From assembly GCA_035529435.1 (NCBI GenBank), contig DATKWS010000154.1, positions 22,064-86,063 on the forward strand: 64,000 bases of DNA. Direction: 5' to 3'. This document shows positions 27,971-51,195 of this stretch, in pieces. Position 1 is the stretch's first letter. Each line of letters starts with the position of its first letter. Both the position numbers and the translations under genes were made by a program. This DNA is from Patescibacteria group bacterium (GTDB lineage: Bacteria > Krumholzibacteriota > Krumholzibacteriia > Krumholzibacteriales > Krumholzibacteriaceae). The notes under the pieces are model-generated. The model was not told the origin of the DNA. It saw nothing but the letters and a program-made list of their open reading frames with translations, and did no database searches.

Positions 27971-29611
27971 TCACCCGCCGTCTTTTTCGGTATAATGCGA
28001 ATGACGGAATGCGGCCGCCGCCGTCCGGTGCGCCGTCCGGTGCGCATGTATGAGCCCCGTCCGCTCGAGAATTTCATGATTTTCCAGCACCTCTGCAACC
28101 GGACCGGAGGCTGCGATGGTCCGGTCGGGCCCCAGGATGACGGCCTTCTCCCCGATATGCCTGGCGAGGAGGAGATCCTGCGTCGCGATGACGAGTGTCT
28201 TTCGCCGTTCGGAGAGTTCGGACAGGAGGTCGATCAGGGCGCCCTCCGTCGCCGGGTCGAGGCTTGCCGTCGGTTCATCCATCAGGTAGATCTCGGGATC
28301 GACCGTCAGGATGGATCCGATGGCGACGCGTTTCTTCTCGCCGCCGCTCAACCGGTACGGATAACGGTCGCCGAGGGCGTCTATGCCGAGCAGCTTCATC
28401 GCGTCTTCCACCACGCGCTCGAGCGCCTCGCCGCTCAAGCCCTTCTGAATCGGACCGAACGCGAGCTCGTCCCACACCGTCGGTGAGAAACACTGTATGT
28501 CGGGATTCTGGAAAACGAGCCCGACACTGCTCCGGAAAAACCGTCTGAATTCTTTCGCACGCAGGCGCTCCTCCGTGACGGCCCCGCCGAATGCGTCGAC
28601 CTCGCCGCTCTGAGGGAAGAGGAGTCCGTCGAGTATCCGCAGGAGCGTCGATTTGCCCGAACCGTTGGGACCGAGTATGACCGTACAGGTCCCCGCGTAT
28701 ATGCGCAGGGCATCGATCCGAATGCCGGGAGTGCCGTCGGGGTATGCATAGAAGACGTTCCGCAGCTCGAATACCCGGTCCACGCCGGGGTCCCCGCCCC
28801 GTTCAACCCGGTCCCCGCCGGTCCCCGCGCCGCCCGGTTCATGCCGCTCCGGACCGCTCCGCACGTCCGTACGCTCCGGACCGGCTGGTAGAGATGAACC
28901 ATCCACCGGATCGCTTCCTCGGGAAACCATTGCCAACTGCACTCCCTCGGCGAGGTGCAGGGACCGCACGAAGAGATACCCGGTACTTCGAAAGAGAAAG
29001 GAGAGCTCCATACGGTACGGGAGCGTCGAGATAACCCGGCTCGTGCGTGCCGCCAGCAGCTCGACGAGTGTTCTCAGCAGGAGGAGAAAATACCGGTATG
29101 ATATGGAGAGGAGCGACACGAGCACGTGAGGTGCCCGCAATTGCCCGAGTGCGCGTGTGACGATGTTCCACCGGGTGGTGAGTATCAGGAGCAGTGCGAA
29201 CGATACACTCGTCGAGACGCGCATGATGAGATAGACCGCGGTGGTGAGCCCCTCCCGCGTGATCGTGACGGGACCCACGGCGGCGGCCCGTTCCCCCGGC
29301 GTCATGAAGAGCGCCGGAATCGCGATCACTCCGGTAAAGAGTGGGATGAAAATCCATACCCGCTTGATGAAATCGAACGCTCCGATGCCGGAAAGGCAGG
29401 CCAACACCAGCGAAGCGGCGTACAGTACGAGCAGCACGGGGATGCTCCTCGTCAGGGAGCAGAGGAGCACGAGCAGCGGCAGGGCCACAATCTTGATCCG
29501 CGCGTCGATCGATTGCAGCAATCCGCCCGTACGTGCCCAGCGCTCGTTCGCCACCGTGTTTTCGATAAGGCGCGCGACTGCGGCGATATTCTTCTCAAGA
29601 GTGAGTGCCAT
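27971..29611 (-). CDS. ECF-transporter fusion: CbiQ/NikQ transmembrane (T) component fused to CbiO/NikO ATPase
   Basis: N-terminal about 270 aa polytopic CbiQ-like region. Acidic/Gly-rich linker. ABC ATPase with Walker A GPNGSGKST, signature LSGGEKKRV and Walker B IYLMDEP. No stop codon between the two halves. Confidence 0.7.
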   Translation of the reverse strand: MALTLEKNIAAVARLIENTVANERWARTGGLLQSIDARIKIVALPLLVLLCSLTRSIPVLLVLYAASLVLACLSGIGAFDFIKRVWIFIPLFTGVIAIPALFMTPGERAAAVGPVTITREGLTTAVYLIMRVSTSVSFALLLILTTRWNIVTRALGQLRAPHVLVSLLSISYRYFLLLLRTLVELLAARTSRVISTLPYRMELSFLFRSTGYLFVRSLHLAEGVQLAMVSRGSDPVDGSSLPAGPERTDVRSGPERHEPGGAGTGGDRVERGGDPGVDRVFELRNVFYAYPDGTPGIRIDALRIYAGTCTVILGPNGSGKSTLLRILDGLLFPQSGEVDAFGGAVTEERLRAKEFRRFFRSSVGLVFQNPDIQCFSPTVWDELAFGPIQKGLSGEALERVVEDAMKLLGIDALGDRYPYRLSGGEKKRVAIGSILTVDPEIYLMDEPTASLDPATEGALIDLLSELSERRKTLVIATQDLLLARHIGEKAVILGPDRTIAASGPVAEVLENHEILERTGLIHAHRTAHRTAAAAFRHSHYTEKDGG

Positions 29612-29915
29612 GCTTGACAAGCCTGCCGATGCCCAGTACCGCCGCGGTGGTGAGCCCCGCCCCGACGAGAGCGGAAAGGATCGTTCCCACTCCCGTCCGC
29701 CAGCCCTCCGCGGCGAGGCCCGGGAACTCGTACTCGGGGAAGGGCGCACTGGGGCGTTTTTTCTGCGCGTTACGCATTCCATCGGGTGCGAAGCCCACGA
29801 TCTCCGTGACGGAGTTGAGGTCCCATTCCCCCCAAGCGCTTCCGATCACGAGAATGCCGATCGGTGTCAGAATCGCCAGTACGATCAATGCAATCCAACC
29901 CCTGGTGTATCTCAT
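29595..29915 (-). CDS. CbiN/NikN small membrane component of Ni/Co ECF transporter
   Basis: About 106 aa with two TM helices (MRYTRGWIALIVLAILTPIGILVIGSAWGEW…). Its ATG overlaps the cbiM TGA (TGATG). Confidence 0.6.
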   Translation of the reverse strand: MRYTRGWIALIVLAILTPIGILVIGSAWGEWDLNSVTEIVGFAPDGMRNAQKKRPSAPFPEYEFPGLAAEGWRTGVGTILSALVGAGLTTAAVLGIGRLVKHGTHS

Positions 29916-30628
29916 CACGCTCCTCCCCCGCCACCGTCCGGCCCTGCGGACCGGGCGCCGGCGCTGAAGAGCTCGTGGTGGTAGCGTCCGAGAAAGGCGA
30001 CCACTCCTCCGGTGATGACGGCCTCCACCGCTCCGCCGGCGGTGAGATGCGGGATCATCATTGCCGGCACCGTCACCGAGACGTTGAAGGGGCAATAGAG
30101 AGGGGTTCCGTCGGGCAGGTGGTGGAACAGCGGCTGTAATCCCAGCTCCAGCGCAACGGCGAGTGCCGCCGCGTTCAGTCCGATATAGGCGCCGATCGCC
30201 GCCGCGGCGGTGAATCGGCGGCTTCCCGGTTCGGAGGAGCCGGCTACCGCCCTGAATACGAGGTACCCCACGAGCGGCATGACGAAGCCCATGTTGAAGA
30301 CGTTTGCGCCGAGTGCGAGGATACCGCCGTCACCGAAAAAGAGCGCCTGTATGGCGAGGGTCAGCGTGATCGCTAACAGGGCAGGCCAGGGGCCGACGAG
30401 GATCGCGATCAGAACTCCCCCGGCCGCGTGTCCGGTCGTTCCCCCGGGCAACGGGATATTGAACATCATGATGAGGAAGGAGAATGCCGCCAGGATGGCG
30501 AGCAACGGTATGTGCGCCTGCCCCAGGCGCGTGCGGACGGCGCGGAGAGACTGCCACCAGAGGGGGGCCGTCAAAAGATAAAATATCCCCGATGTATGCG
30601 GTGAAATGTACCCGTCGGGTATGTGCAT
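29915..30628 (-). CDS. CbiM/NikM substrate-specific component of Ni/Co ECF transporter
   Basis: Starts with the canonical MHIPDGY N-terminus required for metal coordination. Polytopic. Confidence 0.8.
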   Translation of the reverse strand: MHIPDGYISPHTSGIFYLLTAPLWWQSLRAVRTRLGQAHIPLLAILAAFSFLIMMFNIPLPGGTTGHAAGGVLIAILVGPWPALLAITLTLAIQALFFGDGGILALGANVFNMGFVMPLVGYLVFRAVAGSSEPGSRRFTAAAAIGAYIGLNAAALAVALELGLQPLFHHLPDGTPLYCPFNVSVTVPAMMIPHLTAGGAVEAVITGGVVAFLGRYHHELFSAGARSAGPDGGGGGA

Positions 30629-30791
30629 GAATCCTTCCCACAATCGTGTTATTTTTTATATTTTCGTAACACAACAAATCTATACGATGGCTCCGGTGCG
30701 GTCAAATAGTTTTCTGCTCCGGGAATATCGGATTGCCACGGGCGTTACAGCGTATTACCATGTAGTAGAGTACGTTACGGGAGAATCGAGC

Positions 30792-31508
30792 ATGAGCGGG
30801 ATCGATCGGACACGGAGCCGTCCACAAAGTGGAAACGGGCTTTTCATCAAAGCCTACCGGGCCCTGCGGCGCGTGTACGGCCCGCAGCACTGGTGGCCCG
30901 TGACACCGCCCGGTGAATTCGAGCCGGCCTACACCGGCGGGCCGTGCTCACCGGAACAGGTTTTCGAGGTAGCGGCGGGTGCCGTTCTCACGCAGAACAC
31001 CGCCTGGAAGAATGCGGCCAAGGCCATCGTGAACCTGAACAGGGCCGGTGTTCTCGATCCCGCGGCTATCCGGGACATCGATGAGAGGGAGCTGGCGCAT
31101 CTCGTGCGTCCATCCGGTTATTACAACCAGAAGGCGCGGCGGTTGAAGACGCTGGCCGATTATTTCATCGGCGCGGATGTGGTCACGAGGGAGGCGCTAC
31201 TCCGACTCGGAGGGGTGGGCCCGGAAACAGCCGATTCGATAATGCTTTATGCATTCGGCAGGCCCTATTTCGTCGTCGACGCCTACACGCGGAGAATATT
31301 CGGACGGATGGGAGCGATCGACGGTGGATCATCATACGAGAGCATCAGGGAGACGTTCGAGAGGAGTCTGCCGCGCCGGATTTCCCTGTACCGGGAGTTT
31401 CACGCGCTGATCGTCGAGCATGGCAAACGGAGCTGTCGGCGAAATCCCCTCTGTGCGGCGTGCGTCATCGCCGACCTCTGCGGATGGAAGAACGGAGAGG
31501 CGCTTTGA
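30792..31508 (+). CDS. endonuclease III-like HhH-GPD domain protein (COG2231 type)
   Basis: Helix-hairpin-helix LGGVGPETADSIMLYAFGRPYFVVDAYTRRIF with catalytic Asp. No [4Fe-4S] cysteine cluster. Confidence 0.6.
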   Translation: MSGIDRTRSRPQSGNGLFIKAYRALRRVYGPQHWWPVTPPGEFEPAYTGGPCSPEQVFEVAAGAVLTQNTAWKNAAKAIVNLNRAGVLDPAAIRDIDERELAHLVRPSGYYNQKARRLKTLADYFIGADVVTREALLRLGGVGPETADSIMLYAFGRPYFVVDAYTRRIFGRMGAIDGGSSYESIRETFERSLPRRISLYREFHALIVEHGKRSCRRNPLCAACVIADLCGWKNGEAL

Positions 31509-31920: not shown

Positions 31921-31941
31921 TATTAATAATGATTATTGACA
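31921..31941 (+). promoter_or_regulatory. putative Fur box in the fur promoter
   Basis: AT-rich palindromic AATAATGATTATT about 70 bp upstream of the fur start, resembling the GATAATGATAATCATTATC consensus. Confidence 0.3.
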
Positions 31942-32006: not shown

Positions 32007-32423
32007 ATGCACTCGTTTGATAAAACCATCCAGAAACTCCGACAGGAAGGTTTCAAGCTGACCCCGCAGAGGCTCGCCGTGATCAAGCACATGATCGGCA
32101 ACAGCAGGCATCCATCAGCGCTGGCGATTCATAAGGATCTGAAGCGCCGGTATCCGAGTCTTTCATTTTCGACCGTCTACAACACACTGAACATGCTCGA
32201 GAGGATCGAGGAGGTGCAATCGCTCAACGTCATCGACGGTCACCTGAATTACGATCCCGATATCAGCACCCATGGCCACTTCCTCTGCACCAAATGCGGC
32301 ACGATCCATGATATCCGTTTCGAGGATTGCGACGATATCAAGCTGCCGCAGGGCGAGATCGGAGGCCATACCATCTCCTCGATACAGGTATCATTCAAGG
32401 GGACGTGCAGGATTTGCCGCTAG
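32007..32423 (+). CDS. fur: Fur-family metalloregulator (Fur/PerR/Zur)
   Basis: 138 aa. Winged-helix N-terminus and C-terminal metal-site motifs HGHFLCTKCG…CxxC (structural Zn). Confidence 0.8.
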   Translation: MHSFDKTIQKLRQEGFKLTPQRLAVIKHMIGNSRHPSALAIHKDLKRRYPSLSFSTVYNTLNMLERIEEVQSLNVIDGHLNYDPDISTHGHFLCTKCGTIHDIRFEDCDDIKLPQGEIGGHTISSIQVSFKGTCRICR

Positions 32424-32432
32424 GAAGTTTTC

Positions 32433-33050
32433 GTGATAGCGCAGGGTTGGAAATGTTCGCAATGCGGTTTCATTACCGTTGACCTCTTCCCCCCCGATAA
32501 CTGCCCGAAATGCAACGCCGACCGATCGGCATTCGAAACGGAACATGCGGTCAAGTTTTCCCAGGATGAGCGCGATGGCGTATTCAATGCCTGCTGGAGC
32601 GTCAGCTACGGGCTGTACCTCGTCAGCTCCATAGACGGCGACAAGATGAACGGGCAGATATGCAACACGCTCTTTCAGATCACCAGCGATCCTCCCCGCA
32701 TCGCCATCGGGATCAACCACGGAAACCTCACGCACGAGTACATAGAGAAAAGCGGTGTTTTTGCTGCATCCGTCCTCGGTGAGAACGACCACAGGATCGT
32801 CCGGCGCTTCGGGTACCGGTCCGGCCGGGATTTCGACAAATTCAAGGGTGTTCCCCTATTCAAGGGGAAGACGGGATGTCCGATATACGAGAAGGCCGTT
32901 GCGTACATCGAGTGCACCATTCTCAGGGACAAGACGACCGACGCCGGCACGCACAGCATCTTCATCGGGGATATCGTGAACGGCGCCCGCCTCACGGAGG
33001 ACGTTCCGATGACGTACGCGTTCTACCACGAAACCAAGGATAAGATTTGA
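32433..33050 (+). CDS. rubredoxin-like zinc-ribbon fused to flavin-reductase-like (FMN-binding split-barrel) domain
   Basis: N-terminal WKCSQCGF…CPKC (two CxxC). Following domain matches flavin reductase-like fold (PRIAIGINHGNLTHEYIEKSGVFAASV…). GTG start with AGGAAG RBS. Confidence 0.65.
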   Translation: MIAQGWKCSQCGFITVDLFPPDNCPKCNADRSAFETEHAVKFSQDERDGVFNACWSVSYGLYLVSSIDGDKMNGQICNTLFQITSDPPRIAIGINHGNLTHEYIEKSGVFAASVLGENDHRIVRRFGYRSGRDFDKFKGVPLFKGKTGCPIYEKAVAYIECTILRDKTTDAGTHSIFIGDIVNGARLTEDVPMTYAFYHETKDKI

Positions 33051-33168
33051 TCGGGACACCACCGGTATCACTTCGGCGCGGCGTTCCCGGGTCCGGTGTT
33101 TCGGATATAATTCCCTTCACAAACGGATCGTATTGTGTTTTCCTTTCAATTCGGGAAGGCATCGAAAC

Positions 33169-34167
33169 GTGAAGAGCGAAGATCAAAAGAAGCAGATACT
33201 GGATATACTCTCCGGCGCGATCCTGCGGGAGACGGATGCGTTCAATTACTATCACCGGAACGCCGATGGTCCGTCGGCACCGCCCGCCGTACGCGGGCTC
33301 TTCTCGCGGCTGGCGGAGGAGGAGCGGGTCCACCGTCACCTGCTGATCAACGAATTTCTCTCGGTGAAGCGCGGGTGGCGCGAGGAGGAGGGGGAAGGGA
33401 TAAAACACATTCCCGCATTCAGGGTGCCCGACAAGATCCCCTTCCTTCCCCTTCGGACCGGGCCGGATCTCGATGCCGCCGCGGTCTGCCTGCCGGGGAG
33501 GCTCGTGGGTGGTGACAACGTATTCTCCGCGGTCGTGCGCGATCATGCCGGCAACGCGACGGGTACATTCCTCGTTCTGTATGATGCGATGGGGCACAGT
33601 TTCGAGACGACGGAAACAAACGCGCTTGCCGCCAGGATTGTCGGCGAGCATTTCGAAGCATCGAGCACGGCCCGTATGCAGCAGGAGCTCCTCGCTCCCG
33701 ATCTGGTGGCGAAACTGCTGAACGAGAAACTGCATGAGAAGTTCGACGGGCAGGGTGTTTTTATCACACTGTTCTGTGCGACGTTCGATACACGGAGTGC
33801 CACGATGTCCTATACCTGCGGCGGGCACGAGCCGCCATTCGTCGTTCGCGCGGACGGGCGGGTGGAATCGCTCCTCAACACGCAGCTCATCGTCGGGATC
33901 GATCCCGATTTCGACTATACCGCCGATGCGGTGCCGTTCGGGGAAGGGGACATTCTCTGCATCTTCACCGACGGGATTGTGGAGGCGAGAAACGAGGAGG
34001 GTGATTTCTTCGGCCGCAGCGGTGTGCAGGCGGTGCTTGCGCGGAGCGGTCCTGCAACGCCCCGCCAACTGATAGAGGACCTGCTCGAGGGGGTTCGGAA
34101 TCACTCGGCGGCCGAACTGATACAGGATGAGATTTCAATAGTTGTCGTCAGATCGAAAGGAGCGTAG
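33169..34167 (+). CDS. rubrerythrin/ferritin-like domain fused to PP2C-type (SpoIIE/RsbU) serine phosphatase
   Basis: N-terminal helix pair with E…ExxH (LRETDAFNYYH / EEERVHRH). C-terminal PP2C motifs GDNVFSAV, DAMGHSFE, CGGHEPP and FTDGIVEARN. Confidence 0.65.
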   Translation: MKSEDQKKQILDILSGAILRETDAFNYYHRNADGPSAPPAVRGLFSRLAEEERVHRHLLINEFLSVKRGWREEEGEGIKHIPAFRVPDKIPFLPLRTGPDLDAAAVCLPGRLVGGDNVFSAVVRDHAGNATGTFLVLYDAMGHSFETTETNALAARIVGEHFEASSTARMQQELLAPDLVAKLLNEKLHEKFDGQGVFITLFCATFDTRSATMSYTCGGHEPPFVVRADGRVESLLNTQLIVGIDPDFDYTADAVPFGEGDILCIFTDGIVEARNEEGDFFGRSGVQAVLARSGPATPRQLIEDLLEGVRNHSAAELIQDEISIVVVRSKGA

Positions 34168-34192
34168 CAGCGTGGCTCGACACGATTCCGAG

Positions 34193-34663
34193 ATGAAAAT
34201 GGCGATCGAGGGTGCGATCTACCGGGAGATAGGGGCGCGGGATTTCTACCGCACCATTGCCGAAGGTATTCAGAATGCGGAGGGGAAGGAGAAGTTCTCC
34301 CGGCTCTCGGAAGACGAGGACGGCCACCGGGCGAAGCTCGAGTCGTGGCTCGACAGGTTGTTCGGGGAATCATTCTCGCCGCAGCCGGACAAGCTCAAGG
34401 AGTCGGAGATCGGTGGGATCGGCATAGATGAACGCACGGGCGCGCTCGAAGCGCTGAACATAGCCATCGGTGCGGAGGAAGAGGCGGAGGCGTTTTACCG
34501 GAATCAGGCGGCCGGTACAGATATTCCGGAGCTGAGGGAGCTGCTGCTCGGTATAGCGGACGAGGAGCACGGCCATTTTGCGATGCTCGAGGCGGAACGG
34601 AATTCGATCATCGGCGGTTTCTACTGGTTCGATATGGATTCGACATCGTTTCTCGAGGACTGA
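34193..34663 (+). CDS. rubrerythrin-like diiron four-helix-bundle protein (no rubredoxin domain)
   Basis: Two E…ExxH pairs ([17 protein letters not shown] and [18 protein letters not shown]) characteristic of ferritin-like diiron sites. Confidence 0.65.
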
Positions 34664-34748: not shown

Positions 34749-34865
34749 GTGAAAAAATGGAAGTGTACCCTCTGCGGATACATTCATACCGGCATGGAAC
34801 CCCCGGATGAATGTCCGGTCTGCGGGGCGCCGAAGGAGAAATTCGTCGAGTATGTCCTCGCATAG
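34749..34865 (+). CDS. mini rubredoxin-like zinc-ribbon protein (38 aa)
   Basis: [15 protein letters not shown]…[11 protein letters not shown], i.e. two CxxCG knuckles. GTG start 8 nt after a GGGAGG RBS. Confidence 0.5.
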
Positions 34866-34896: not shown

Positions 34897-35058
34897 ATGA
34901 TGGAAAAGTGGAAATGTACGTTGTGCGGTTACATCTACGATCCCGCCCTGGGTGACCCGGATAACGGCGTCGAGCCAGGTACGGCCTTCGAGGACCTCCC
35001 CGATGACTGGGTGTGCCCGGACTGCGGCGCCGGCAAAGAAGATTTCGAGAAGGTGTGA
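34897..35058 (+). CDS. rubredoxin
   Basis: 53 aa canonical [12 protein letters not shown]…[16 protein letters not shown]. Preceded by a GGAGA RBS. Confidence 0.85.
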
Positions 35059-37160: not shown

Positions 37161-38714
37161 ATGCAAAACCTGAGTTTCAAGATACAGATCGCCATGCTTG
37201 TCAGCCTGCTTGTTGCGGGGCTCGTGGCCGCATTTTCCTGGACGGTTGCCACGCGGGAACGGAGCATGATTCTATCGGAGGTTCTCCACCGCGTGGTTCT
37301 GCAGGGCCGGAACCTGGCGCTCAGCTCGGCAAAACCGCTTTTACACGAGGATCCCGAGTTTGAATTGCATCCACTCGTTGCCAAGGTAATCGAATACGAT
37401 CACGATGTTGTTTCGATCGTCGTGGTCGATCACAATAGCGTTATCAAGGGCCACCGGGACGTTGCGGCTATTGACAAGGTATACATACCGTTAAAAGAGC
37501 TCAGGCCCATAGATCAGGTCACGCACCAGTCGGCCGGCGAGACATTCAGGGAAAACGAGAGTTTCATCGAGGTGTCCGTTCCCGTCACCGATCGGAGGGA
37601 GAGAATCGGGACGGTATACCTTCAATACTCCAAACGGGGGATTCGCGAGGCCATGGATACCATCAAGGGGAGGATACTGCGCATCGGCCTTTTTGCGCTC
37701 GCCGTGGGTGTACTGCTCTCCCTTCTGCTCGCCTTCCATATTACGAGTCCCATCAGTAAACTGACACGGGGCGCCGAATCGATCGGCCGCGGGAATCTCG
37801 ACACGAGGATCAAGATCAGGTCGGTGAAGGAGATTCAGGCACTCGCGCACACCTTCAACGAGATGGCCAGGAGTCTCGAGGAGAGTCACCGCGCGATGCT
37901 CGACAAGGAGAGGATGGAGAAGGAGCTCGAGATCGCGCGCGAGATCCAGGAGACGCTCCTGCCGGCGCATCTGCCGCATCTGCGCAATTTCGAAATTGAT
38001 GCATACTACCATCCCGCCTCCCAGGTCGGTGGTGACTATTTCGATCTCATACGGGTCGACGAGCGGCACCTCATGATCGTTGTCGGCGATGTCGCGGGCA
38101 AGGGCGTTCCCGGTCTCGTCATCATGGCGATGGCGAGAATTCTCGTGCGGCATTTGGCGCTCAAGGGGGAGCGGCCGTCGAAACTTCTGCGTCATCTCAA
38201 TGTGCTCCTGAAGCGCGATATGAAACGGAACCTCTTCCTGACTCTTTTCTGCGGTTTACTCGATACCCACGATGGCACACTCCGATTCGCCAGCGCGGCC
38301 CACATGCCGCTCATCGTGTATCACAGCAACGAACAGATGGTACGCATGATGAGTACGAAGGCCAGGCCGGTCGGGATCTTTTCGGACGAGGTGTTTTCGC
38401 AGGGGCTCGAGGAATATGTCGTTTGTCTCCAACCCGGTGATCTGCTTCTCCAATTCACCGACGGTCTCAACGAGATGCGCGACCCTGCCGGGAATGAGTT
38501 CGGGATAGAGAGGATCATGCAGACGGCATACGACGAGGCGAAGGGTGGCGCCCGGCACCTGATCGCGGAGATAAAGCGGAGACTCGGGGAATTTCGTCAT
38601 GGCGAACTGCAGAGCGACGATCTCACGCTCCTCGCGGTGAGCGCGCTGCCCGCCGGCATGGAGAGGGTAAACGAGGAACGTATGGAGATCCTCGACAGGG
38701 TGGTATTCGATTGA
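37161..38714 (+). CDS. membrane sensor-HAMP-PP2C serine phosphatase (RsbU/SpoIIE family)
   Basis: TM1, about 150-aa periplasmic domain, TM2, HAMP, then PP2C motifs GGDYFD, VGDVAGKG and FTDGLNE. Confidence 0.75.
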   Translation: MQNLSFKIQIAMLVSLLVAGLVAAFSWTVATRERSMILSEVLHRVVLQGRNLALSSAKPLLHEDPEFELHPLVAKVIEYDHDVVSIVVVDHNSVIKGHRDVAAIDKVYIPLKELRPIDQVTHQSAGETFRENESFIEVSVPVTDRRERIGTVYLQYSKRGIREAMDTIKGRILRIGLFALAVGVLLSLLLAFHITSPISKLTRGAESIGRGNLDTRIKIRSVKEIQALAHTFNEMARSLEESHRAMLDKERMEKELEIAREIQETLLPAHLPHLRNFEIDAYYHPASQVGGDYFDLIRVDERHLMIVVGDVAGKGVPGLVIMAMARILVRHLALKGERPSKLLRHLNVLLKRDMKRNLFLTLFCGLLDTHDGTLRFASAAHMPLIVYHSNEQMVRMMSTKARPVGIFSDEVFSQGLEEYVVCLQPGDLLLQFTDGLNEMRDPAGNEFGIERIMQTAYDEAKGGARHLIAEIKRRLGEFRHGELQSDDLTLLAVSALPAGMERVNEERMEILDRVVFD

Positions 38715-38738
38715 GGAAGTACTGAACGGGGTTTCGAT

Positions 38739-39848
38739 ATGAGGCTCGAAATGTTCGACAGGGAAACGATGACTGTCTGCGTGAGCTGCGCGGACCGGCA
38801 GGATTGGGATATCCTCGACAAGCTCTCCAGCCTCATCGCGGTCTCCTCGGATTGCGGATTCAACCGGATCATATTCGAGCCGCCGTCACGCCTGCCTCTG
38901 CCGGTCGGTATGGCGCTCGAGCAGCTTGCCCGCCGTAACGGGGTCATCCTTTCCGCCGCCGATGAAAGCGCCGCCGGGGAGGCGAAGGACGAGTTCGGTT
39001 TCGTCGTGGTGAGCAGGGAGTCCAGTTTTATCTGCCTCCGTGATTCGGGCGATGATATGCATTACCAGCTCTACCTCGAGGCCTGCGAGGAGAACGTCGA
39101 TCTCGGCGCGCGTCTCGCCTACCTGCTCGCAAACGTGCTCGGTTTCACGAGCCTCATCTCGTTCGAGATTCGTTTCAGCGTGTACGAGCTCCTCAACAAC
39201 ATTTTCGAGCACGGTCTCGAGCAGGGTGCCAGCCAGTGGGTCGAATTGATCATCGAGAAAAAGCGAGATAAGCTGTCGGTTTCGCTGGTCGACAAGGGAG
39301 TCGCGTTCGATCCGACAAGGGATGAGAAATTCAACCTGGCACGGTACCTGGAATCGGGCAAGAAACGGGGGCTCGGTCTCGTCATGACACGCAGGATAGC
39401 GGGGCGGATGCAGTACCATCGGGATGGGGAATTCAACAAGATCCATTTCGAGAAATCGGATTCATTCCCCGGAGGGACTCTCCGGGCCGTAAAGGAGGAG
39501 ACAATGGCACAGTTCATAGTCGGTGAACCGGTCCGCACGGAGGACGGTTCCTCCCTCATGGCGCTCGAGGGCGATCTCGATACGAAAGGCGCTCTTGTCA
39601 TGGAGGATCTGATGTCGCAGCTCCTCGACCAGAAGATGTTCCGCGTGATCTTCGATTTCGAAAAGGTACCGTTCGTGTCAAGCGCGGGAGTGGGAATTCT
39701 TCTCGGGATCGTATCCTCGCTCCGCGAGGAGGGTGGGGAGGTTACCCTGTTGAACGTTTCGCCGAAGGTGAAGTCGGTGTTCAGGCTTCTCAATCTCGAT
39801 GACTATTTCACCATCGCCGACTCACGGGATTCGTTTGTCGAATTCTGA
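38739..39848 (+). CDS. fusion of RsbW/SpoIIAB-type serine kinase (GHKL ATPase) with C-terminal STAS anti-sigma-antagonist domain
   Basis: Central HATPase_c N-box ELLNNIFEHG and G-box GLGLVMTRR. C-terminal STAS with the phospho-acceptor region FVSSAGVGILLG. N-terminal about 110 aa of unknown function. Confidence 0.6.
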   Translation: MRLEMFDRETMTVCVSCADRQDWDILDKLSSLIAVSSDCGFNRIIFEPPSRLPLPVGMALEQLARRNGVILSAADESAAGEAKDEFGFVVVSRESSFICLRDSGDDMHYQLYLEACEENVDLGARLAYLLANVLGFTSLISFEIRFSVYELLNNIFEHGLEQGASQWVELIIEKKRDKLSVSLVDKGVAFDPTRDEKFNLARYLESGKKRGLGLVMTRRIAGRMQYHRDGEFNKIHFEKSDSFPGGTLRAVKEETMAQFIVGEPVRTEDGSSLMALEGDLDTKGALVMEDLMSQLLDQKMFRVIFDFEKVPFVSSAGVGILLGIVSSLREEGGEVTLLNVSPKVKSVFRLLNLDDYFTIADSRDSFVEF

Positions 39849-39871
39849 GAACCATCACGGAGGAATTCTGG

Positions 39872-41317
39872 ATGAGCAAGGCGCCGCCTGAACAGACGTG
39901 CCGCAGCGAACCTGATGTGAAACGGCTCGAGGAAAGTCTCGAGAAGCGGAATATCACATTCGAGGCGCTGTTCGGACTGTTCGAGAAGATCGGAACGACG
40001 CTGGACCTGGCAACGATCGTCCGGCTCTTCCTGCTCACCCTCATGGGACAACTCAGGTTGAAACGCATCGCCTTGTATCTTGCTTCCTCGGATGGAACGC
40101 GGTTCGTGATGCATCACGCGCTGGGTATCGGCCGGCAGGTGCTGCCGACGGCCTTCTGCGTGGAGCACACGCTCACGCGCTGGTTGCGGTCGGAAAAGGA
40201 CGCTCCGCATATAGACAGTTTCTTCAATGAGTACAAGGGCGAGGTGCCCGGGGAGACGGCCGGTTTTCTCGGGGAAATGGCCGGGCGAAGTTTCGCCTAT
40301 GCGTATCCCCTTACCGATCGGGATGAGTTGCTGGGAGCGGTGTTCTTCAGCGGGAAGGTGACGGGGGAGGGATTCTCACAATTCGACAACGAGCTGCTGC
40401 GGATGCTCGCCAAGGTTGCCACCATCACGATCAGGAATGCGGCACTCTACCGCTCGGCGGTGCAGTCCAAGCAGGAGCTCGAGAGGTTTTCACGGATCAA
40501 GAAGGAGTTCATCAACCACACCTCGCACGAGTTGCGGACGCCGATCACCGTTCTCAAGAGCGCACTCTGGTCGATCGAATCGGACGAGATCGATGAAGGC
40601 GTACTGATCGATATGTCCAAGGATGCCGTGCTCAGGATGCAGGACAAGATCGAACAACTGCTCTCGCTCAACGATATCGAATTGAACGCGACCGCATTCG
40701 ACCTCGCCCGGACCGATGTCTCGTCGCTGCTGGAGGAGTGCCTGCGCGAGATCATCCCCGAGCTCGAGGAGAAACAGATAACGGTCGATCTCGATGACCG
40801 CGCCCGTTACCGGGAGATCATGGTCGATGCCGCCAAGATGAAGCTCGTGCTGCGCGGTATCATCGATAACGCCGTCAATGCTGTCGAGAGGGGCGGCACC
40901 ATTTCGATCGTGACCGATGTCACGGATATCCCGCCGGGGGGCGGCGATGGGATCGAGATACCCGATTGGTCGACTGTCGCGGAGGGACCGCTTCCGTATT
41001 CCCCGTGTGATGCGGCGGACAACGAGCACGCAGGTACCGGCCCGTCACGGAACTTCACCGATTTTCATCCATCGAGCCAGGGATCGTTCCTCGTCATGCG
41101 CATGCGGGACGACGGCGTCGGTATACCGGCCGACGAGATCATGGCCGTTTCCGAGCCGTTCCGGCGGGCCTCGAATTCTCCCCTGAAAAACGTCAAGGGG
41201 CTCGGCATCGGTCTCTCCGTCGCGTTGAAGATCATCGCGGGACACGGCGGGCGGCTCTTTTGTAGAAGCGAAGAGGGAAGAGGGACGGAATTCTCTATCT
41301 GGCTGAACGCCGATTGA
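39872..41317 (+). CDS. cytoplasmic GAF-domain sensor histidine kinase (no cognate response regulator adjacent)
   Basis: GAF domain. HisKA H-box HTSHELRTPITVL. HATPase_c with an about 50-aa insertion before the G-boxes. Confidence 0.75.
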   Translation: MSKAPPEQTCRSEPDVKRLEESLEKRNITFEALFGLFEKIGTTLDLATIVRLFLLTLMGQLRLKRIALYLASSDGTRFVMHHALGIGRQVLPTAFCVEHTLTRWLRSEKDAPHIDSFFNEYKGEVPGETAGFLGEMAGRSFAYAYPLTDRDELLGAVFFSGKVTGEGFSQFDNELLRMLAKVATITIRNAALYRSAVQSKQELERFSRIKKEFINHTSHELRTPITVLKSALWSIESDEIDEGVLIDMSKDAVLRMQDKIEQLLSLNDIELNATAFDLARTDVSSLLEECLREIIPELEEKQITVDLDDRARYREIMVDAAKMKLVLRGIIDNAVNAVERGGTISIVTDVTDIPPGGGDGIEIPDWSTVAEGPLPYSPCDAADNEHAGTGPSRNFTDFHPSSQGSFLVMRMRDDGVGIPADEIMAVSEPFRRASNSPLKNVKGLGIGLSVALKIIAGHGGRLFCRSEEGRGTEFSIWLNAD

Positions 41318-46119: not shown

Positions 46120-49068
46120 TTAAGGCGCTTGAGTGGGTGCACTCTGGTCTGATCGTGCGGCGCAACGTTCGACGCCGGGATCGAATCTTCCACAGCAGAT
46201 GAGGGGCGCCCATAAGTGAATATTATCAAAGGTATTACCGGAAGCACGGCTCTTCTCTATCATCTCTCTCTGCATGGCGCAGAGCGCCGCAGTGGCCGAT
46301 GACGCGCCGCCCCACAACTTTTCATAGAACGATGTTACGGCCCTCTCGGCGGCGGCATCCTCTATCGGCCACAGCGAACCGACTACCATGTGTGCGCCGG
46401 AGCGGACGAACGCCCCCGCCAGTCCCGAACCCGCCTGAGCGTACTGTGTGCCGCCCCCGACCGATTCGCACGCCGCAAGAAAGACGAGCCGAACATGCGA
46501 CAGATCGAGCCTCAGAATTTCTTGTTCATCGAGAAGAGCGCCCGAGAGCTCTCTCTCGCCGGTGATCTCCCCGGAAGGTGAGAGGAGGAGGGCCGTTTTT
46601 CCGCTGTGCAGGGGGTAGTGTATGGAGTGTGATGAGATGTGTACCAGGTCGGAACGCTCGATACGGGCGAGTAACGCCTGCCTGGTTGCCCCCGTCCCCT
46701 GGAGCACCGTGCCGTTCTCGAAGAATTGTTGCAGCCGGACAAGCTCCCTTCCGGCGTAATGGAGGGAATCGAGGCGGGGGTAGATCCTGCGCGCGAGATC
46801 GGGAATGACGGCATTGCCGACAATGAGCGGTGCCCGGAAACGCGGTGCGGCCGTCCCGCCGGATTCGCCGGGAGCAGCCACGGGTTCATACTGTGGATCG
46901 GCGGTGCCGGGCACCGCACGGGTGGTCTTCCCACTGCCGGTGTGCAGATCGAGCAGGCTGGGGGAGACGAATATCGTTTTGGATTCCAGGAGAAACCGGT
47001 CCGAGCCGCGAGCCGCCAGGGCGCCGAACGGCAGAAGACGGAGGACGCCGTCGGGGATAAAGCAGAGTATCTCGGCGGATTCGACGAGGGGCGCGAGCGG
47101 CTCGATCAGAAAGCCGTAGAGACGGGATGTAATCCCGGCGATACGGTCCCGGTTCAGGCCGGGTCCGGAATGTCGATCGCTGACGGACGGCCCGCACTGC
47201 TCGATGAACGCGCGCACCTCCCGGTCGAGCGTCACGCTCTCCACGGCGACGCACCGGTGCGTGGCGCCGTTCCTGTTCAACGCCACGAGTATCAACCGGT
47301 CCGGCGTGATCGTGGTTTGGACGATGAGGGCGCACTCCGGAATCCATGCCCGGTCCGCAATGCATGACCTGATGGAATCGTCGAGGGCCATGGATGGGAC
47401 GGACCGGCCGCAGGGATCAGCGTGCCGCGACCGCTCGGCCCAGAAGAGAACGGAATCGGCCCCATGCGATGTCTCGCTGTCGAGACGTATAAGGTCGTCA
47501 TAGATCGAATCGACCAGTTGCACGAGGAAGTGCCTGTTTTCCACGTGCGGTTTCCGCAACGATTCCTCCTCGAAGAGGGCAATGGCGCCTGCGAGAATCT
47601 TTCGGCCGTCGTTCCGGTTCCCCCGGCTGATCTTTGTTTTTCCGAGGAGCCGGCACGATTCGATTTGCTGCATCCAGTAATTTTCCTCGATCGCCAGGCG
47701 CACGGCCTCATCGAGGAGTTCCTCGGCCTGTCGGTAGCGATGCTGCTCGAAGTGGAGACGGGCCATCGCCGTCGTGTATTCGGCCACCCGGCGGTTCTCC
47801 CGAAGCCTGTGTGAGACGGCCAATGCACGTTCGTAACAGGAAAGTGCCTCCTCGGTCTTTCCCGCCGCCGCGTATGTATCGCCGAGCTGTTTCTCCAACT
47901 CGGCGATGTAGTGTTGATCGATGCCGCGCTGTGCGATCGACAGCGCTTTTTCCATTTTGGCGATCGCCTCGCCGAGGTTTCCCGCCGCGCGCTGGATACG
48001 GGAAAGGAGTGCGAGTCCCGATGCAAGGTACTGCTCCGTCGCGTGCGTAACGTAGATGCCGGTCTCGGGTGAGTCGCCGCTCAGCAGTTCCTCGGCGAGA
48101 AGCGTCGATTTCTCCGCGATGCCGGCGGCGCGGTTCGTTTCGCCGAAGCTGTTGAGTAACCGCGCGAGTGTGAGATTTCGAGAGATGGAGCAATTCGGAT
48201 CACAGGCGTGTTCGCTGCAGCGGCAGGCCTGCACGAGCAGGGATTCCGCTTCGACGGTGAATCCTTCGGTGCCGCGGAGGCAGCCGAGAAACGAGAGGGC
48301 CCGGCTCAGGTAGTAGGGGTCCCCGCATCGCTCTGCGTTCGAGAGGCTCAACCGGTAGGCCGCGTCCGCAGCCTCGAAATTCCCCTTCCGCACGTGATAG
48401 GCGCCGATCCGGCCCGAGATGTAACTCACACTTGGCAGGTGCTCGGTATCCCTGTACGTATCGAGGGCCTCCTCGAGGCAGCGCACCCCCTCGGGATCGC
48501 GCCCCGAGGCGAAATAGTAATCGGCGAGCGTTTCGAGCCCTTTGCCGGTCCACCGGCCGCATCCGGCGTCTTCAAGGGCCGCGATGCTCTCCCGGAGGAC
48601 CGTCTCTATCTCCTCGGCCCGGTCGAGCTCATCGTAGATTCTGTCATGGCACCGCACAATGCACCTGCGCGCCGCCGTGTACGCGCTCAATTTCCGCTCG
48701 TCATCGAGGAGGTCTGCGATCAGGAGGGAAAAGTGACGCGAGTGGAACGCCGAATCGAGCAGGTAGGCGATTTTCCCGGCCTCCACGGCGCAGTAGGCGA
48801 AGGTCCCCTGCGCACCGCGTTCATGCGCCTCGAGAAGAAGGTTGAATTGCGGGCTCAGTGCTTTCTCGCTCCAGATGAAGCCGCTTTTTTCGAAGAGTGC
48901 CACGGCGGCGTCATCGCTCAAGAGCTGGGCCGGAATCCCTGATACTTTCACGTACTCGAGGTTGTACATCTCGCCGTCTCCGGGCGCGGGGGCGAGGTGC
49001 ACCGCTGCGCTGATGATGATGTAGGCGAGCGCCGCGTACGCCGGGATATGATAGCGAACTGGTTTCAT
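46120..49068 (-). CDS. TPR-repeat protein with C-terminal CHAT (caspase-like) domain, membrane-anchored
   Basis: N-terminal TM helix. Many TPR-like repeats. C-terminal CHAT with the His/Cys dyad region (VHISSHSIHYP… and LVFLAACESVGG). Confidence 0.7.
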   Translation of the reverse strand: MKPVRYHIPAYAALAYIIISAAVHLAPAPGDGEMYNLEYVKVSGIPAQLLSDDAAVALFEKSGFIWSEKALSPQFNLLLEAHERGAQGTFAYCAVEAGKIAYLLDSAFHSRHFSLLIADLLDDERKLSAYTAARRCIVRCHDRIYDELDRAEEIETVLRESIAALEDAGCGRWTGKGLETLADYYFASGRDPEGVRCLEEALDTYRDTEHLPSVSYISGRIGAYHVRKGNFEAADAAYRLSLSNAERCGDPYYLSRALSFLGCLRGTEGFTVEAESLLVQACRCSEHACDPNCSISRNLTLARLLNSFGETNRAAGIAEKSTLLAEELLSGDSPETGIYVTHATEQYLASGLALLSRIQRAAGNLGEAIAKMEKALSIAQRGIDQHYIAELEKQLGDTYAAAGKTEEALSCYERALAVSHRLRENRRVAEYTTAMARLHFEQHRYRQAEELLDEAVRLAIEENYWMQQIESCRLLGKTKISRGNRNDGRKILAGAIALFEEESLRKPHVENRHFLVQLVDSIYDDLIRLDSETSHGADSVLFWAERSRHADPCGRSVPSMALDDSIRSCIADRAWIPECALIVQTTITPDRLILVALNRNGATHRCVAVESVTLDREVRAFIEQCGPSVSDRHSGPGLNRDRIAGITSRLYGFLIEPLAPLVESAEILCFIPDGVLRLLPFGALAARGSDRFLLESKTIFVSPSLLDLHTGSGKTTRAVPGTADPQYEPVAAPGESGGTAAPRFRAPLIVGNAVIPDLARRIYPRLDSLHYAGRELVRLQQFFENGTVLQGTGATRQALLARIERSDLVHISSHSIHYPLHSGKTALLLSPSGEITGERELSGALLDEQEILRLDLSHVRLVFLAACESVGGGTQYAQAGSGLAGAFVRSGAHMVVGSLWPIEDAAAERAVTSFYEKLWGGASSATAALCAMQREMIEKSRASGNTFDNIHLWAPLICCGRFDPGVERCAARSDQSAPTQAP

Positions 49069-49122
49069 GTCCGGTCCCCGTTCGCTGTATACTATAGCAG
49101 AAAAATACAATAATAATAATGA

Positions 49123-50040
49123 TTATTCTTTAATGAGAGCCCGCGCCTTCTCTGCCCATGGAGAGGTTGGATCCCTGTGGATGTACGATTCGAGATACCG
49201 GTTCGCCTCGGCCGTTTTCCCGGTCGCATGGTATATGATTCCGAGGTTGTAATAGGCCTCGGGAGGTACATGTTCACGTTGTGCAGCATCGATCAGGCGG
49301 ATCAGCGCCAGATCGGTTCTCCCCAGCCTGTACGATACCACAGCGAGATCGTTGTACGAGCGGCCGTCATCCGGCGCCAGGAGTGCGGCCCGTCGGTATG
49401 CCACTTCGGCCCTGTCGAACCGGTTCATGGCGAAATGCAGATGCCCGAGGAGCTGGTGGACTTCCGGATTGCGGGGATATCGCCGAATGAGCTGTTTCAG
49501 TGTGCCTTCGAGTCGTTCGAACCGGCGGTAATCACCCGCTGGATTTCCGCGAATCGCGACCGGTGTTCCGCCCGGTCTGTCCCGCCCGCCGGTGAGGCGC
49601 AGCTCGCCGATCTGTGCGGCTGATAGGACCGTGTCGATCTCCGTCCGGGCCGCCCGCAACTCGGGATCCCAGGCAGGGGAGAGCATGAGGAGGCTCAGAA
49701 CGAAGATCATTGCTATCGAAGTTGCTAGTGCAGAATAGGTTACGGTCGCATGCCACACCCGCGCAAGGAACGGCGCACGAGGAGGGGATTGGCGCGCCGC
49801 CTCAGTAATGCCGGATCTATCTTGCTGCGCGAGCGGTTCCCGCCGAGCGGTACACTGGAGGGCCGGATCCGGCAAGAAGGTCCCGGTCATCTCGTCGAGT
49901 TCCCCCTTTGCGTTGAACAGGGTTGCCAGGCAGCGGGGACAATCCGCAACATGCTTCTCGTACGCCCGGCGTTCCTCATCCGTGAGGCGCCTGTCGAGAT
50001 ATGCCGCGAGCCATTCCTCGTTATTACAGAATTCCTTCAT
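49123..50040 (-). CDS. anti-sigma factor (zf-HC2 N-terminus, single TM, periplasmic TPR domain)
   Basis: HxxxCxxC motif EKHVADCPRC at N-terminus. TM helix. TPR repeats. Immediately downstream of the ECF sigma factor. Confidence 0.6.
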   Translation of the reverse strand: MKEFCNNEEWLAAYLDRRLTDEERRAYEKHVADCPRCLATLFNAKGELDEMTGTFLPDPALQCTARREPLAQQDRSGITEAARQSPPRAPFLARVWHATVTYSALATSIAMIFVLSLLMLSPAWDPELRAARTEIDTVLSAAQIGELRLTGGRDRPGGTPVAIRGNPAGDYRRFERLEGTLKQLIRRYPRNPEVHQLLGHLHFAMNRFDRAEVAYRRAALLAPDDGRSYNDLAVVSYRLGRTDLALIRLIDAAQREHVPPEAYYNLGIIYHATGKTAEANRYLESYIHRDPTSPWAEKARALIKE

Positions 50041-50148: not shown

Positions 50149-51063
50149 TCAGTGAAACGGATGACCGTGGCCGTCCGGCGGTGTGTTCCACATATCTTCC
50201 CACGAGTGCAGTTCCATGAGGTTCTGCACGATTCCCTGGTAAATTTCCAGTGGTATGCCGGTCTCCAGCAACATCGCTTTCAGCTGCGCGAACAGCTTTT
50301 CGAGGCGCCGGTAGACCAATTGCTCGTTTCCGAGATCGAGCACCTCGCAGATCCTCCTGGCGCTCGCCTTGTGCTCGAACCGGAGCTGGAGAATGATCTG
50401 GTCGCGGTGCGGCAGATGGAGGAGGGCATCGCGGAGGTTCTGCAGCGCCTCGCGGAACAGATCGCTCTCCATGAGAATATCCGGAACCGGTTGCGTACGG
50501 CGTTCCAGTGGCACATGATCACTCGAGGTGTAAGCGGTGCCGTTCAGTGGAACGTTCCGTACTATTGAGGGAGCGAGCAGTTTCTCGATGAGCTTGCCGA
50601 GCCTGCGCTCCCGCGCCGTTTGGATTATGCGCTCCTCGCATTCGATCAGATCGAGGTAGGAGATATGATCTCCCATCTCGGCACGGAGCCCCGCGAGCAC
50701 CTCGTGGATCGGGAGTGCCTGGATGAATGCCAGCTTGAAGTAGCGCCGGTCGACCGGGAGAAGCCCTCCGAGGGCCGTCAGTACGTGCCGGATCCCCTTC
50801 GAGCTTCTGAAATAGTCCCGGCAGTGATTCACCGTTACGATGAACAGCCACGTCGAGAGCGTCGATCTGCCGTTGAACTTGGCGAGCTTTTCGTTTTTGA
50901 GCTTTTCCAGAAGCGAAACGTACAGGTCGCGCGCGATTTCATCGTCATTCACGTACCTGCCGATGATGCTCTGCATGTTATCGGTATAGGTTTCGATGAA
51001 CCGATGCCATGCCGCAATATCGCCGGCCATGATCTTTCTTACGAGATCGAGATCGACCTTCAT
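50149..51063 (-). CDS. ECF-type sigma-70 factor with long sigma2-sigma4 linker and C-terminal extension
   Basis: Region 2 STLSTWLFIVTVNHCRDYFR. Region 4 HTH ASARRICEVLDLGNEQLVYRRLEKLFAQLK. About 300 aa, versus about 190 for a minimal ECF sigma. Confidence 0.6.
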   Translation of the reverse strand: MKVDLDLVRKIMAGDIAAWHRFIETYTDNMQSIIGRYVNDDEIARDLYVSLLEKLKNEKLAKFNGRSTLSTWLFIVTVNHCRDYFRSSKGIRHVLTALGGLLPVDRRYFKLAFIQALPIHEVLAGLRAEMGDHISYLDLIECEERIIQTARERRLGKLIEKLLAPSIVRNVPLNGTAYTSSDHVPLERRTQPVPDILMESDLFREALQNLRDALLHLPHRDQIILQLRFEHKASARRICEVLDLGNEQLVYRRLEKLFAQLKAMLLETGIPLEIYQGIVQNLMELHSWEDMWNTPPDGHGHPFH

Positions 51064-51195
51064 GCTATAATTATAATTGAAAATCGATGGATAGCAACCG
51101 ATAACCCCGGCCGGCGGCAAGGACACTACTCCGTGAGGAAACAGGTGCGCACCGGGAGTGCCGCTTCGCCGGCGGGACGATCTTGTGGTGTGGAT

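Follow-up and report, generated by a model that had tools for sequence, protein, structure and literature searches.

Within a 64-kb window (the whole stretch of DNA analysed here, 64,000 nt of contig DATKWS010000154.1), the gene at positions 33169-34167 encodes a protein in which an N-terminal half-ferritin hairpin with a putative diiron ligand set is fused to a SpoIIE/RsbU-type PP2C phosphatase domain. This fusion protein is probably an oxidant or iron sensor of uncultured anaerobes, as judged from its sequence and predicted structure. With modest confidence we favour a more specific reading, built on sequence, structural models and analogy, in which it would act as a cytoplasmic peroxide or O2 sensor-phosphatase with a diiron switch at the dimer interface that is reset by rubredoxin. 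Sequence, predicted structure and synteny are the sole basis of this inference, which is coherent. It supports the interpretation given in a preliminary description of the gene, which had been drawn from the letters of the sequence and had proposed a direct O2, peroxide or iron input to the phosphatase; every prediction of that interpretation that could be checked in silico held.

A half-ferritin hairpin fused to a PP2C domain

The gene is preceded by a GGAAGG ribosome-binding site at 33155-33160, 8 nt 5′ of its start, and its product is 100% identical to P0001, a 332-aa protein in public metagenome assemblies. The gene and its parts, in window positions, are the following.

33169..34167, + strand: complete half-rubrerythrin/PP2C fusion gene, 332 aa, GTG start, TAG stop (open reading frame (ORF) list, Pfam)
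33169..33393, + strand: N-terminal half-ferritin hairpin, residues 1-75 (AlphaFold2 (AF2) models, Pfam, fold and profile matches)
33229..33231, + strand: codon of E21, putative iron ligand in helix 1 (translation; invariant in 85/85 homologues)
33250..33252, + strand: codon of Y28 (E21+7), second-sphere tyrosine equivalent to Tyr39 of encapsulated ferritin (EncFtn) (translation; invariant)
33322..33333, + strand: codons of E52-R53-V54-H55, the ExxH motif in helix 2 (translation; E52 and H55 invariant in all alignments)
33376..33468, + strand: linker, residues 70-100; W70 and P87 are conserved (AF2 secondary structure, conservation)
33469..34158, + strand: PP2C (SpoIIE/RsbU-type) domain, residues ~101-330 (Pfam, invariant columns, Foldseek)

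In the Pfam scan, residues 12-64 matched Rubrerythrin (PF02915; 24.3 bits, E 4.4e-5), a marginal pass of the gathering score of 22.8 that covers model positions 1-54 of 137 and hence the first helix pair only. The precomputed Pfam annotation assigns this match to some homologues of the fusion protein and not to all. Residues 132-328 matched SpoIIE (PF07228) with 121.1 bits (cut-off 25). The full-length AF2 model, computed with an 85-sequence alignment as input, reached a predicted local distance difference test score (pLDDT) of 87.7 and a predicted template modelling score of 0.83, and it runs from a helix (residues 3-32) over a six-residue loop into a second helix (39-69), followed by a low-confidence linker and the PP2C fold. 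Modelled alone, the N-domain (pLDDT 91.6) was again a hairpin, with helices 2-32 and 39-75; the two models together place helix 1 at ~3-32, the loop at 33-38 and helix 2 at ~39-69/75. Instead of a long coiled-coil helix, the linker is a short, non-helical stretch whose pLDDT falls below 50 at residues 72-79. The preliminary description had read an N-terminal helix pair with an E...ExxH pattern and, in the remainder, an RsbU/SpoIIE-type PP2C domain. Both readings are borne out: the monomer prediction that it had proposed as a check gave a single helical hairpin plus a PP2C fold, the pattern lies at E21 (33229-33231) and E52-R-V-H55 (33322-33333), and the SpoIIE match of 121 bits goes together with conserved catalytic aspartates.

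Conservation of the putative iron ligands

Since a bare E...ExxH pattern is cheap, conservation and profile similarity were used as the test of chance. A full-length search returned 87 homologues (two of them truncated) at E ≤ 1e-61 and 42-100% identity, 85 of which were aligned; beyond these, matches at E ~1e-16 or weaker were PP2C proteins with REC, GAF, FHA or PAS N-termini. The invariant residues of the N-domain in the alignment of the 85 homologues are E21, T22, Y28, L48, E51, E52, R53, H55 and R56. A second subfamily of about 20 proteins (324-358 aa, 24-32% identity) has the same hairpin-plus-PP2C layout with a single N-terminal match to the hairpin profile. In its alignment, E21, Y28, E52 and H55 are invariant as well, together with the PP2C aspartates, and N-domain positions other than the ligands vary across both subfamilies. 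The conservation of E21, E52 and H55, which the preliminary description had singled out for checking, thus extends from 85/85 homologues to the distant subfamily, and no homologue lacking these ligands was found among them. At the level of sequence, the resemblance of the hairpin to diiron proteins is well beyond chance.

Resemblance of the hairpin to rubrerythrin and encapsulated ferritin

Searched against 1.84 billion representative proteins, the hairpin profile gave 691 matches at E ≤ 1e-3. The best 150 of these 691 matches are mostly ~330-aa proteins or proteins of 140-180 aa matched in both halves, and because of this double match we took the latter, which were reached down to E ~1e-14, as complete rubrerythrin-like proteins. 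Among PDB sequences, the profile matched the P. furiosus rubrerythrin-like protein 2fzf in both halves (E 3e-4) and the P. furiosus encapsulated ferritin 5n5e (E 3.6e-4), and also 2e0z. By sequence, the hairpin is most closely related to rubrerythrins and rubredoxin-less 'erythrin'-type proteins (PF02915; 2FZF, sulerythrin), which likewise have rubredoxin as a genomic partner. They differ from the fusion protein in forming an intramolecular four-helix bundle with two E...ExxH pairs, whereas the latter has one hairpin, joined to a phosphatase. Pfam found neither a RUBY_RBDX nor a Rubredoxin domain within the fusion chain; both are encoded by separate neighbouring genes.

In a Foldseek search that covered 350,542 PDB chains, the top matches of the hairpin included P. 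furiosus EncFtn 5n5e (30% identity, template modelling score (TM) 0.73) and R. rubrum EncFtn 5da5 (TM 0.74, root-mean-square deviation 3.4 Å). The other top matches were ne0167 (3k6c) and M. xanthus EncC, followed by the DHp hairpins of histidine kinases, which also dimerise into four-helix bundles. Chains of the EncFtn/EncB/EncC group (5DA5, 5N5E) accordingly stand at the top of the fold matches and recur among the PDB profile matches. They share with the fusion protein the two-helix half-ferritin hairpin and the pattern E-x6-Y...E-x2-H at near-equal spacing, E21 being followed by Y28 (+7), E52 (+31) and H55 (+3) in the fusion protein and the corresponding steps being +7, +30 and +3 in EncFtn. 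EncFtn is a half-ferritin in which the diiron ferroxidase site forms only across the dimer interface, from Glu32, Tyr39, Glu62 and His65 of two chains, and in which Fe2+ coordination stabilises the dimer (PMC5012862); it serves as the model for iron binding by a single hairpin. On each helix of our hairpin, the conserved hydrophobic and ligand positions form an arc of ~180-200 degrees, which exceeds what one partner helix can bury and lends soft support to a four-helix bundle. There are differences from EncFtn too. The fusion protein stays under the family cut-offs (PF22277, NF058679, TIGR04535): PF22277 (EncFtn) gave no match in the Pfam scan, and residues 6-59 matched NCBIfam EncB_fam at E 0.013 and 15.5 bits, far under the cut-off of 90. 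Its C-terminus is a PP2C domain, that of EncFtn a targeting peptide, EncFtn being a decameric ferroxidase cargo, and no encapsulin shell was found among the recurrent neighbour families identified, for which part of the neighbouring ORFs was annotated.

The matches to kinase hairpins bear on a different reading, according to which the hairpin is a constitutive dimerisation domain like the RsbU N-terminus and its rubrerythrin-like residues are a relic that binds no metal. RsbU-type PP2Cs do use N-terminal helical dimerisation domains (PMC12143880), and DHp hairpins are indeed among the fold matches. However, E21, Y28, E52 and H55 remain invariant down to 24% identity while nearby positions drift, and the persistent linkage to rubredoxin described below would be left unexplained. 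We regard this reading as very improbable.

The phosphatase domain

Among the 85 close homologues, and again in an alignment of 32 sequences drawn from both subfamilies, the aspartates D116 (in GGD), D139, D268 (followed by G269) and D320 of the PP2C domain are invariant. For two of them, D268 and D320, the aligned counterparts in B. subtilis SpoIIE lie in its SDG and EDD motifs, at residues that we take to be D746 and D795. With Foldseek, the PP2C model matched SpoIIE (5ucg, E 3e-13) and SiaA (6k4e, TM 0.73), and also Rv1364c, RsbX and RssB. Because the aspartates are kept and the model superposes on SpoIIE, SiaA, Rv1364c, RsbX and RssB, the domain looks catalytically competent. The fusion protein is a member of the SpoIIE/RsbU PP2C family, and its N-domain falls into the ferritin-like superfamily.

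With RsbU, RsbP and SpoIIE it has the family, the fold and the catalytic aspartates in common, and regulated dimerisation is known for PP2Cs of this type. The logic may be shared as well, by analogy: an N-terminal helical dimerising module followed by a C-terminal PP2C domain that is governed by the arrangement of the dimer, as RsbU-type PP2Cs are controlled via N-terminal dimerisation domains (PMC12143880). The difference lies in the sensor, here a putative metal-site hairpin and not PAS, REC, GAF, HAMP or RsbU_N; Pfam found no match to the RsbU N-terminal domain in the fusion protein, and the paper on the RsbU mechanism names PAS, REC, GAF and HAMP sensor domains and no ferritin-like domain (PMC12143880). 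The short linker is a further difference, the crossing coiled coil being a feature of RsbU and related sensor-PP2Cs (PMC12143880). Neither RsbT/rsbR/rsbS genes nor other stressosome genes occur in the neighbour lists of the contexts examined.

Rubredoxin as the most conserved neighbour

Scanning 185,579 species, each represented by one genome, with a peptide pattern that includes EERxHR yielded 56 loci, and 51 of them encode family members. The named genomes of the family are all FCB-group metagenome-assembled genomes (MAGs), from Krumholzibacteriota, Latescibacterota, Aegiribacteria, Zixibacteria, Ignavibacteria, Eisenbacteria and division B38. Neighbours were counted by tblastn in 50 species-level loci with a radius of 4 kb, and Pfam served to check the representatives of the neighbour families. 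In 46/50 loci, one or more redox or iron genes were present; the individual counts are as follows.

Rubredoxin or rubredoxin-like domain: 43/50 loci
Rubrerythrin-like protein: 27/50 loci
Fur/PerR regulator: 20/50 loci
Flavin reductase: 13/50 loci
Flavodiiron protein: 10/50 loci
Ferritin: 7/50 loci
Peroxiredoxin: 3/50 loci
NADH:rubredoxin oxidoreductase (NROR): 2/50 loci

A fusion of RUBY_RBDX and flavin reductase lies immediately upstream of the fusion gene in 13/50 loci, and the recurrent neighbour families also include PyrF and PTS-EIIA. Of all neighbours, rubredoxin, canonical or as a rubredoxin-like domain, is the best conserved. Members of the distant subfamily are usually followed, 48-140 nt downstream on the same strand, by a canonical rubredoxin that is 58-74% identical to the one of the window. 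As rubredoxin is kept beside this subfamily too, the pair of sensor-phosphatase and rubredoxin represents the conserved core.

These counts also speak to the possibility that the protein senses iron availability, with labile Fe(II) driving dimerisation of the hairpin, the phosphatase tracking cytoplasmic iron and oxidation of the site playing no part in signalling. EncFtn assembly is Fe2+-dependent (PMC5012862), a Fur-family regulator heads the cluster in the window, and ferritin is a neighbour in 7/50 loci, all of which would suit such a sensor. Against it, electron-transfer and oxidant-defence functions dominate the neighbourhood (rubredoxin in 43/50 and rubrerythrin-like proteins in 27/50 loci, besides flavodiiron protein, peroxiredoxin and NROR), which indicates redox turnover of the site, and the Fur-family protein scores best against PerR. 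We consider a sensor of iron alone unlikely, and prefer an oxidant sensor, although the two readings are compatible with each other and not exclusive.

The organism itself is a side issue. P0001 carries the NCBI label Patescibacteria group bacterium, its named relatives at ≥42% identity are Krumholzibacteriota, Latescibacterota and Aegiribacteria MAGs, and the GC content of the window is ~60%; the name Patescibacteria probably reflects an error of binning or labelling.

The gene cluster in the window

The fusion gene is part of a plus-strand cluster with the following further features.

31926..31936, no strand assigned: Fur/PerR-box-like palindrome ATAATGATTAT, recognised in the sequence, in an AT-rich region ~80 nt upstream of the Fur-family gene
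32007..32423, + strand: Fur-family regulator, PerR-like, first gene of the cluster (Pfam FUR, 86 bits)
32433..33050, + strand: fusion of RUBY_RBDX and flavin reductase, likely electron source (Pfam)
34172..34663, + strand: complete rubrerythrin-like protein (Pfam Rubrerythrin, 55.9 bits in two stretches)
34749..34865, + strand: 38-aa stand-alone RUBY_RBDX mini-gene with its own ribosome-binding site (Pfam, 63.9 bits)
34897..35058, + strand: canonical rubredoxin, 53 aa (Pfam Rubredoxin, 89.8 bits)

The best NCBIfam match of the Fur-family protein is PerR, with 111 bits and under the cut-off of 180. In most Krumholzibacteria-clade loci, a ATAATNATTAT palindrome (with at most one mismatch) is found ~40-180 nt, mostly 80-90 nt, upstream of the Fur-family gene, usually as its sole occurrence in the locus. 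This recurrence fits an autoregulated Fur/PerR operon, and ATAATGATTAT is likely the operator in the window, as its sequence suggests.

The product of 34172-34663 has both E...ExxH pairs and is without a rubredoxin domain, and rubrerythrin seems here to be divided between two genes, one for the bundle and another for the rubredoxin-like domain. The RUBY_RBDX mini-gene is uncalled in an identical public contig; the locus L064, a metagenome contig with the same operon order, has a called gene of 40 aa at the corresponding position.

The close apposition of the rubrerythrin-like gene raises the possibility that the hairpin is a docking module, which would form a hetero four-helix bundle with the adjacent rubrerythrin-like protein or bind rubredoxin and thereby tether the phosphatase to peroxide detoxification, either regulated by it or regulating it. 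The rubrerythrin-like gene starts 4 nt past the PP2C stop, its ribosome-binding site lies inside the end of the PP2C gene, and across loci the distance is within ~3-32 nt (from the ends of tblastn alignments). Moreover, the hairpin and the second half of the neighbouring rubrerythrin-like product share 32% identity (hhalign, E 2.3e-5), and sulerythrin-type rubrerythrins form domain-swapped bundles with hairpins from two chains. Yet 23/50 loci, including most of the distant subfamily, are without a rubrerythrin-like gene within 4 kb and keep all the ligands, and a neighbour with all four helices would offer a free half-site only in a domain-swapped form. Docking is in our view clearly improbable.

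Still less probable is a bifunctional enzyme, in which the diiron domain would catalyse a peroxidase or ferroxidase reaction on a small scaffold and the phosphatase would serve an unrelated purpose. EncFtn and rubrerythrin are catalytic diiron proteins, and complete detoxification genes adjoin the fusion gene; but the dedicated rubrerythrin-like enzyme next door would make a second catalytic copy redundant, and the fixed one-to-one fusion to a signalling phosphatase in both subfamilies is typical of sensor-output proteins.

A possible mechanism of sensing

In the mechanism that we propose, the hairpins of two protomers would pair into an EncFtn-like four-helix bundle, in which E21, E52 and H55 of both chains would make up a single symmetric diiron site with bridging carboxylates. 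Occupancy by Fe(II) would neutralise the clustered carboxylates and stabilise the dimer. Oxidation by H2O2 or O2 to the diferric state would then alter the geometry or stability of the bundle; alternatively, the trigger could be the loss of Fe(III) after a ferroxidase-type turnover. Either change would affect how the two PP2C domains are held and so switch the phosphatase, the active state being either the reduced or the oxidised one, with dephosphorylation of a phospho-Ser/Thr protein as the output. Rubredoxin re-reduces rubrerythrin, and the neighbouring rubredoxin, fed by the flavin reductase or by NADH:rubredoxin oxidoreductase, could re-reduce the site in the same manner. With such a reset, the sensor would report the balance of oxidant load versus reducing power.

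Several points weigh against this mechanism. EncFtn, its structural model, is a decameric ferroxidase and no sensor, and the context of a Fur-family regulator and ferritin fits iron sensing as well. The Pfam Rubrerythrin score lies barely above threshold (24.3 vs 22.8), and the Foldseek E-values of the hairpin are weak (0.04-0.5, none reaching 0.001), which is expected for 78 residues, so that the ranking of the matches weighs more than their statistics. In the set of genome loci, the conservation of ExxH is circular because the retrieval pattern contains EERxHR; E21 and Y28, which are outside this pattern, are present in 51/51 family members among these loci. The linker is short and unlike the crossing coiled coil of the RsbU paradigm. 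Finally, no STAS match was found within 4 kb in the 50 loci by a low-sensitivity tblastn with a single STAS query, and the neighbours conserved across the loci examined include neither STAS nor anti-sigma genes.

Relation to known redox sensors

The closest functional precedent would be the hemerythrin sensors. Hemerythrin sites are built by a single chain from five His, one Glu and one Asp; that of the fusion protein would, by comparison, be carboxylate-rich and built from two chains, each hairpin contributing two Glu, one His and one Tyr. Hemerythrin and the hairpin are unrelated in fold family as well as in ligand set, Pfam found no Hemerythrin match in the fusion protein, and the resemblance is functional only. 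It lies in the principle of a non-haem diiron four-helix bundle that switches a fused output, as in DcrH, in Bhr-DGC and in Bhr-HD-GYP (PMC9388753), and which may apply here by analogy. In hemerythrin diiron domains, the diferrous versus diferric state switches GGDEF and HD-GYP outputs (PMC9388753). The known hemerythrin outputs are MCP, GGDEF and HD-GYP, that of the fusion protein is a PP2C domain. The fusion protein is structurally like EncFtn and, by analogy, functionally like the hemerythrin sensors, and is a member of neither group.

PerR is likewise an iron-based peroxide sensor, and a PerR-like gene heads the cluster of the fusion gene itself; PerR acts on transcription, through metal-catalysed oxidation of His. 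Another system for comparison is the Vibrio stressosome, which signals via an RsbU-type PP2C pathway. There, a haem globin resides on a separate protein, whereas in the fusion protein the putative sensor and the phosphatase form a single chain with a site of the ferritin type. In the literature, the haem-RsbR stressosome of Vibrio figures as an O2-sensing system of the stressosome/RsbU type.

Sensor-PP2C fusions and diiron sensors of the hemerythrin type are already known. A ferritin- or rubrerythrin-type half-domain as a signalling input is undescribed in the literature searched, and we found no description of a fusion of rubrerythrin with PP2C, SpoIIE or RsbU in the searchable literature, including a survey of rubrerythrin architectures. 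This agrees with the remark in the preliminary description that the architecture was not recognised from characterised systems. Tentatively, and by analogy as much as from sequence and models, the hairpin might be the first sensory domain of the ferritin-like superfamily, with an interface diiron site that exists in the homodimer only and gates a PP2C domain, and with a dedicated rubredoxin that resets it. If true, anaerobic candidate phyla of the FCB group (Krumholzibacteriota, Zixibacteria, Ignavibacteria and relatives) would possess a post-translational route for sensing oxidants or redox poise in parallel to PerR, and a first point of entry to the signalling of oxidative stress would be gained for several uncultured phyla. 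By means of the metal site at the dimer interface, iron and oxidant chemistry would directly govern the dimerisation of a phosphatase, rubredoxin would gain a role in signalling besides detoxification, and the hairpin would be a living example, newly used, of the proposed two-helix ancestor of ferritins. The hypothesis is directly testable in vitro because the protein is small and soluble, with clear ligand residues that can be mutated.

The candidate substrate in the window

The only STAS domain of the 64-kb window is fused to an anti-sigma-type kinase and lies 4.6 kb from the fusion gene, within a separate signalling module.

37161..38714, + strand: HAMP-PP2C gene, directly preceding the kinase-STAS gene (Pfam)
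38739..39848, + strand: anti-sigma-type kinase (HATPase_c_2) and STAS in a single polypeptide (Pfam)
39872..41317, + strand: histidine kinase (HisKA and HATPase_c in an identical contig)

The preliminary description had suggested this STAS-containing neighbour as the substrate, which is unsupported by synteny. This HAMP-PP2C gene occurs near the fusion gene in the organism of the window and in a single further species locus, L009, where the contig stops ahead of the place at which a STAS gene would appear, and it is absent from the other contexts examined. We rejected the STAS neighbour as a conserved partner, given that its own HAMP-PP2C adjoins it and that the latter recurs in L009 only; HAMP-PP2C is the more obvious phosphatase for it than the fusion protein. 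The kinase-STAS protein stays a legitimate test substrate that is not singled out by synteny. The module at 37161-41317, with its kinase fused to the substrate domain, is an unusual partner-switching layout, and we take it to be reminiscent of M. tuberculosis Rv1364c.

Further observations

Among the matches sampled, and the sampling was shallow, no fusion of the hairpin to a GGDEF, kinase or MCP output was seen. Against a set of 5.8 billion proteins, the hairpin profile gave nine short entries only, consisting of gene fragments and a few short ORFs. One protein, P0200, is a 75-aa stand-alone hairpin with E/Y/ExxH, and two others of 115-140 aa (P0212, P0230) carry a C-terminal hairpin behind an unrelated N-terminal extension. 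In the 280-aa protein P0144, the N-terminal part is rhodanese-like by eye, and two stretches of the rubrerythrin-like part match the hairpin profile. As modules, half-ferritin hairpins may be in wider use than the EncFtn literature suggests. In L064 (2828-3722), a 66-aa hairpin (P0263) is followed 44 nt downstream by a 216-aa SpoIIE ORF in an otherwise identical operon. We rejected this arrangement as a natural two-gene system; the split gene is most likely a frameshift or an assembly error.

Upstream of the cluster, 27971-31508 holds a minus-strand CbiM/PDGLE/CbiQ-ABC transporter (ECF-type, Ni/Co) with NikR, and an HhH-GPD DNA glycosylase is encoded at 30606-31508 on the plus strand, directly before the Fur-family gene; both arrangements are kept in several genomes. 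The base-excision repair glycosylase may be functionally linked to the adjacent oxidative-stress operon.

A second exact copy of ATAATGATTAT is located at 49116-49126, inside a AATAATAATAATGATTATT run, and may mark a further member of the same regulon. It lies just upstream of a minus-strand ORF of 996 aa (46120-49110), repeat-rich and of the TPR/CHAT type by eye, and just after the stop of a 305-aa ORF (49123-50040) with a CPRC motif that appears anti-sigma-factor-like by eye. The latter is downstream of a sigma-factor-like ORF (50149-51126). Farther along, the minus-strand ORF at 51196-51735 shows by eye a CPC...CPC...CYC pattern as in the ferredoxin-thioredoxin-reductase-like protein of the Eisenbacteria locus L044, which has FeThRed_B and RUBY_RBDX domains (Pfam) and precedes the sensor gene there.

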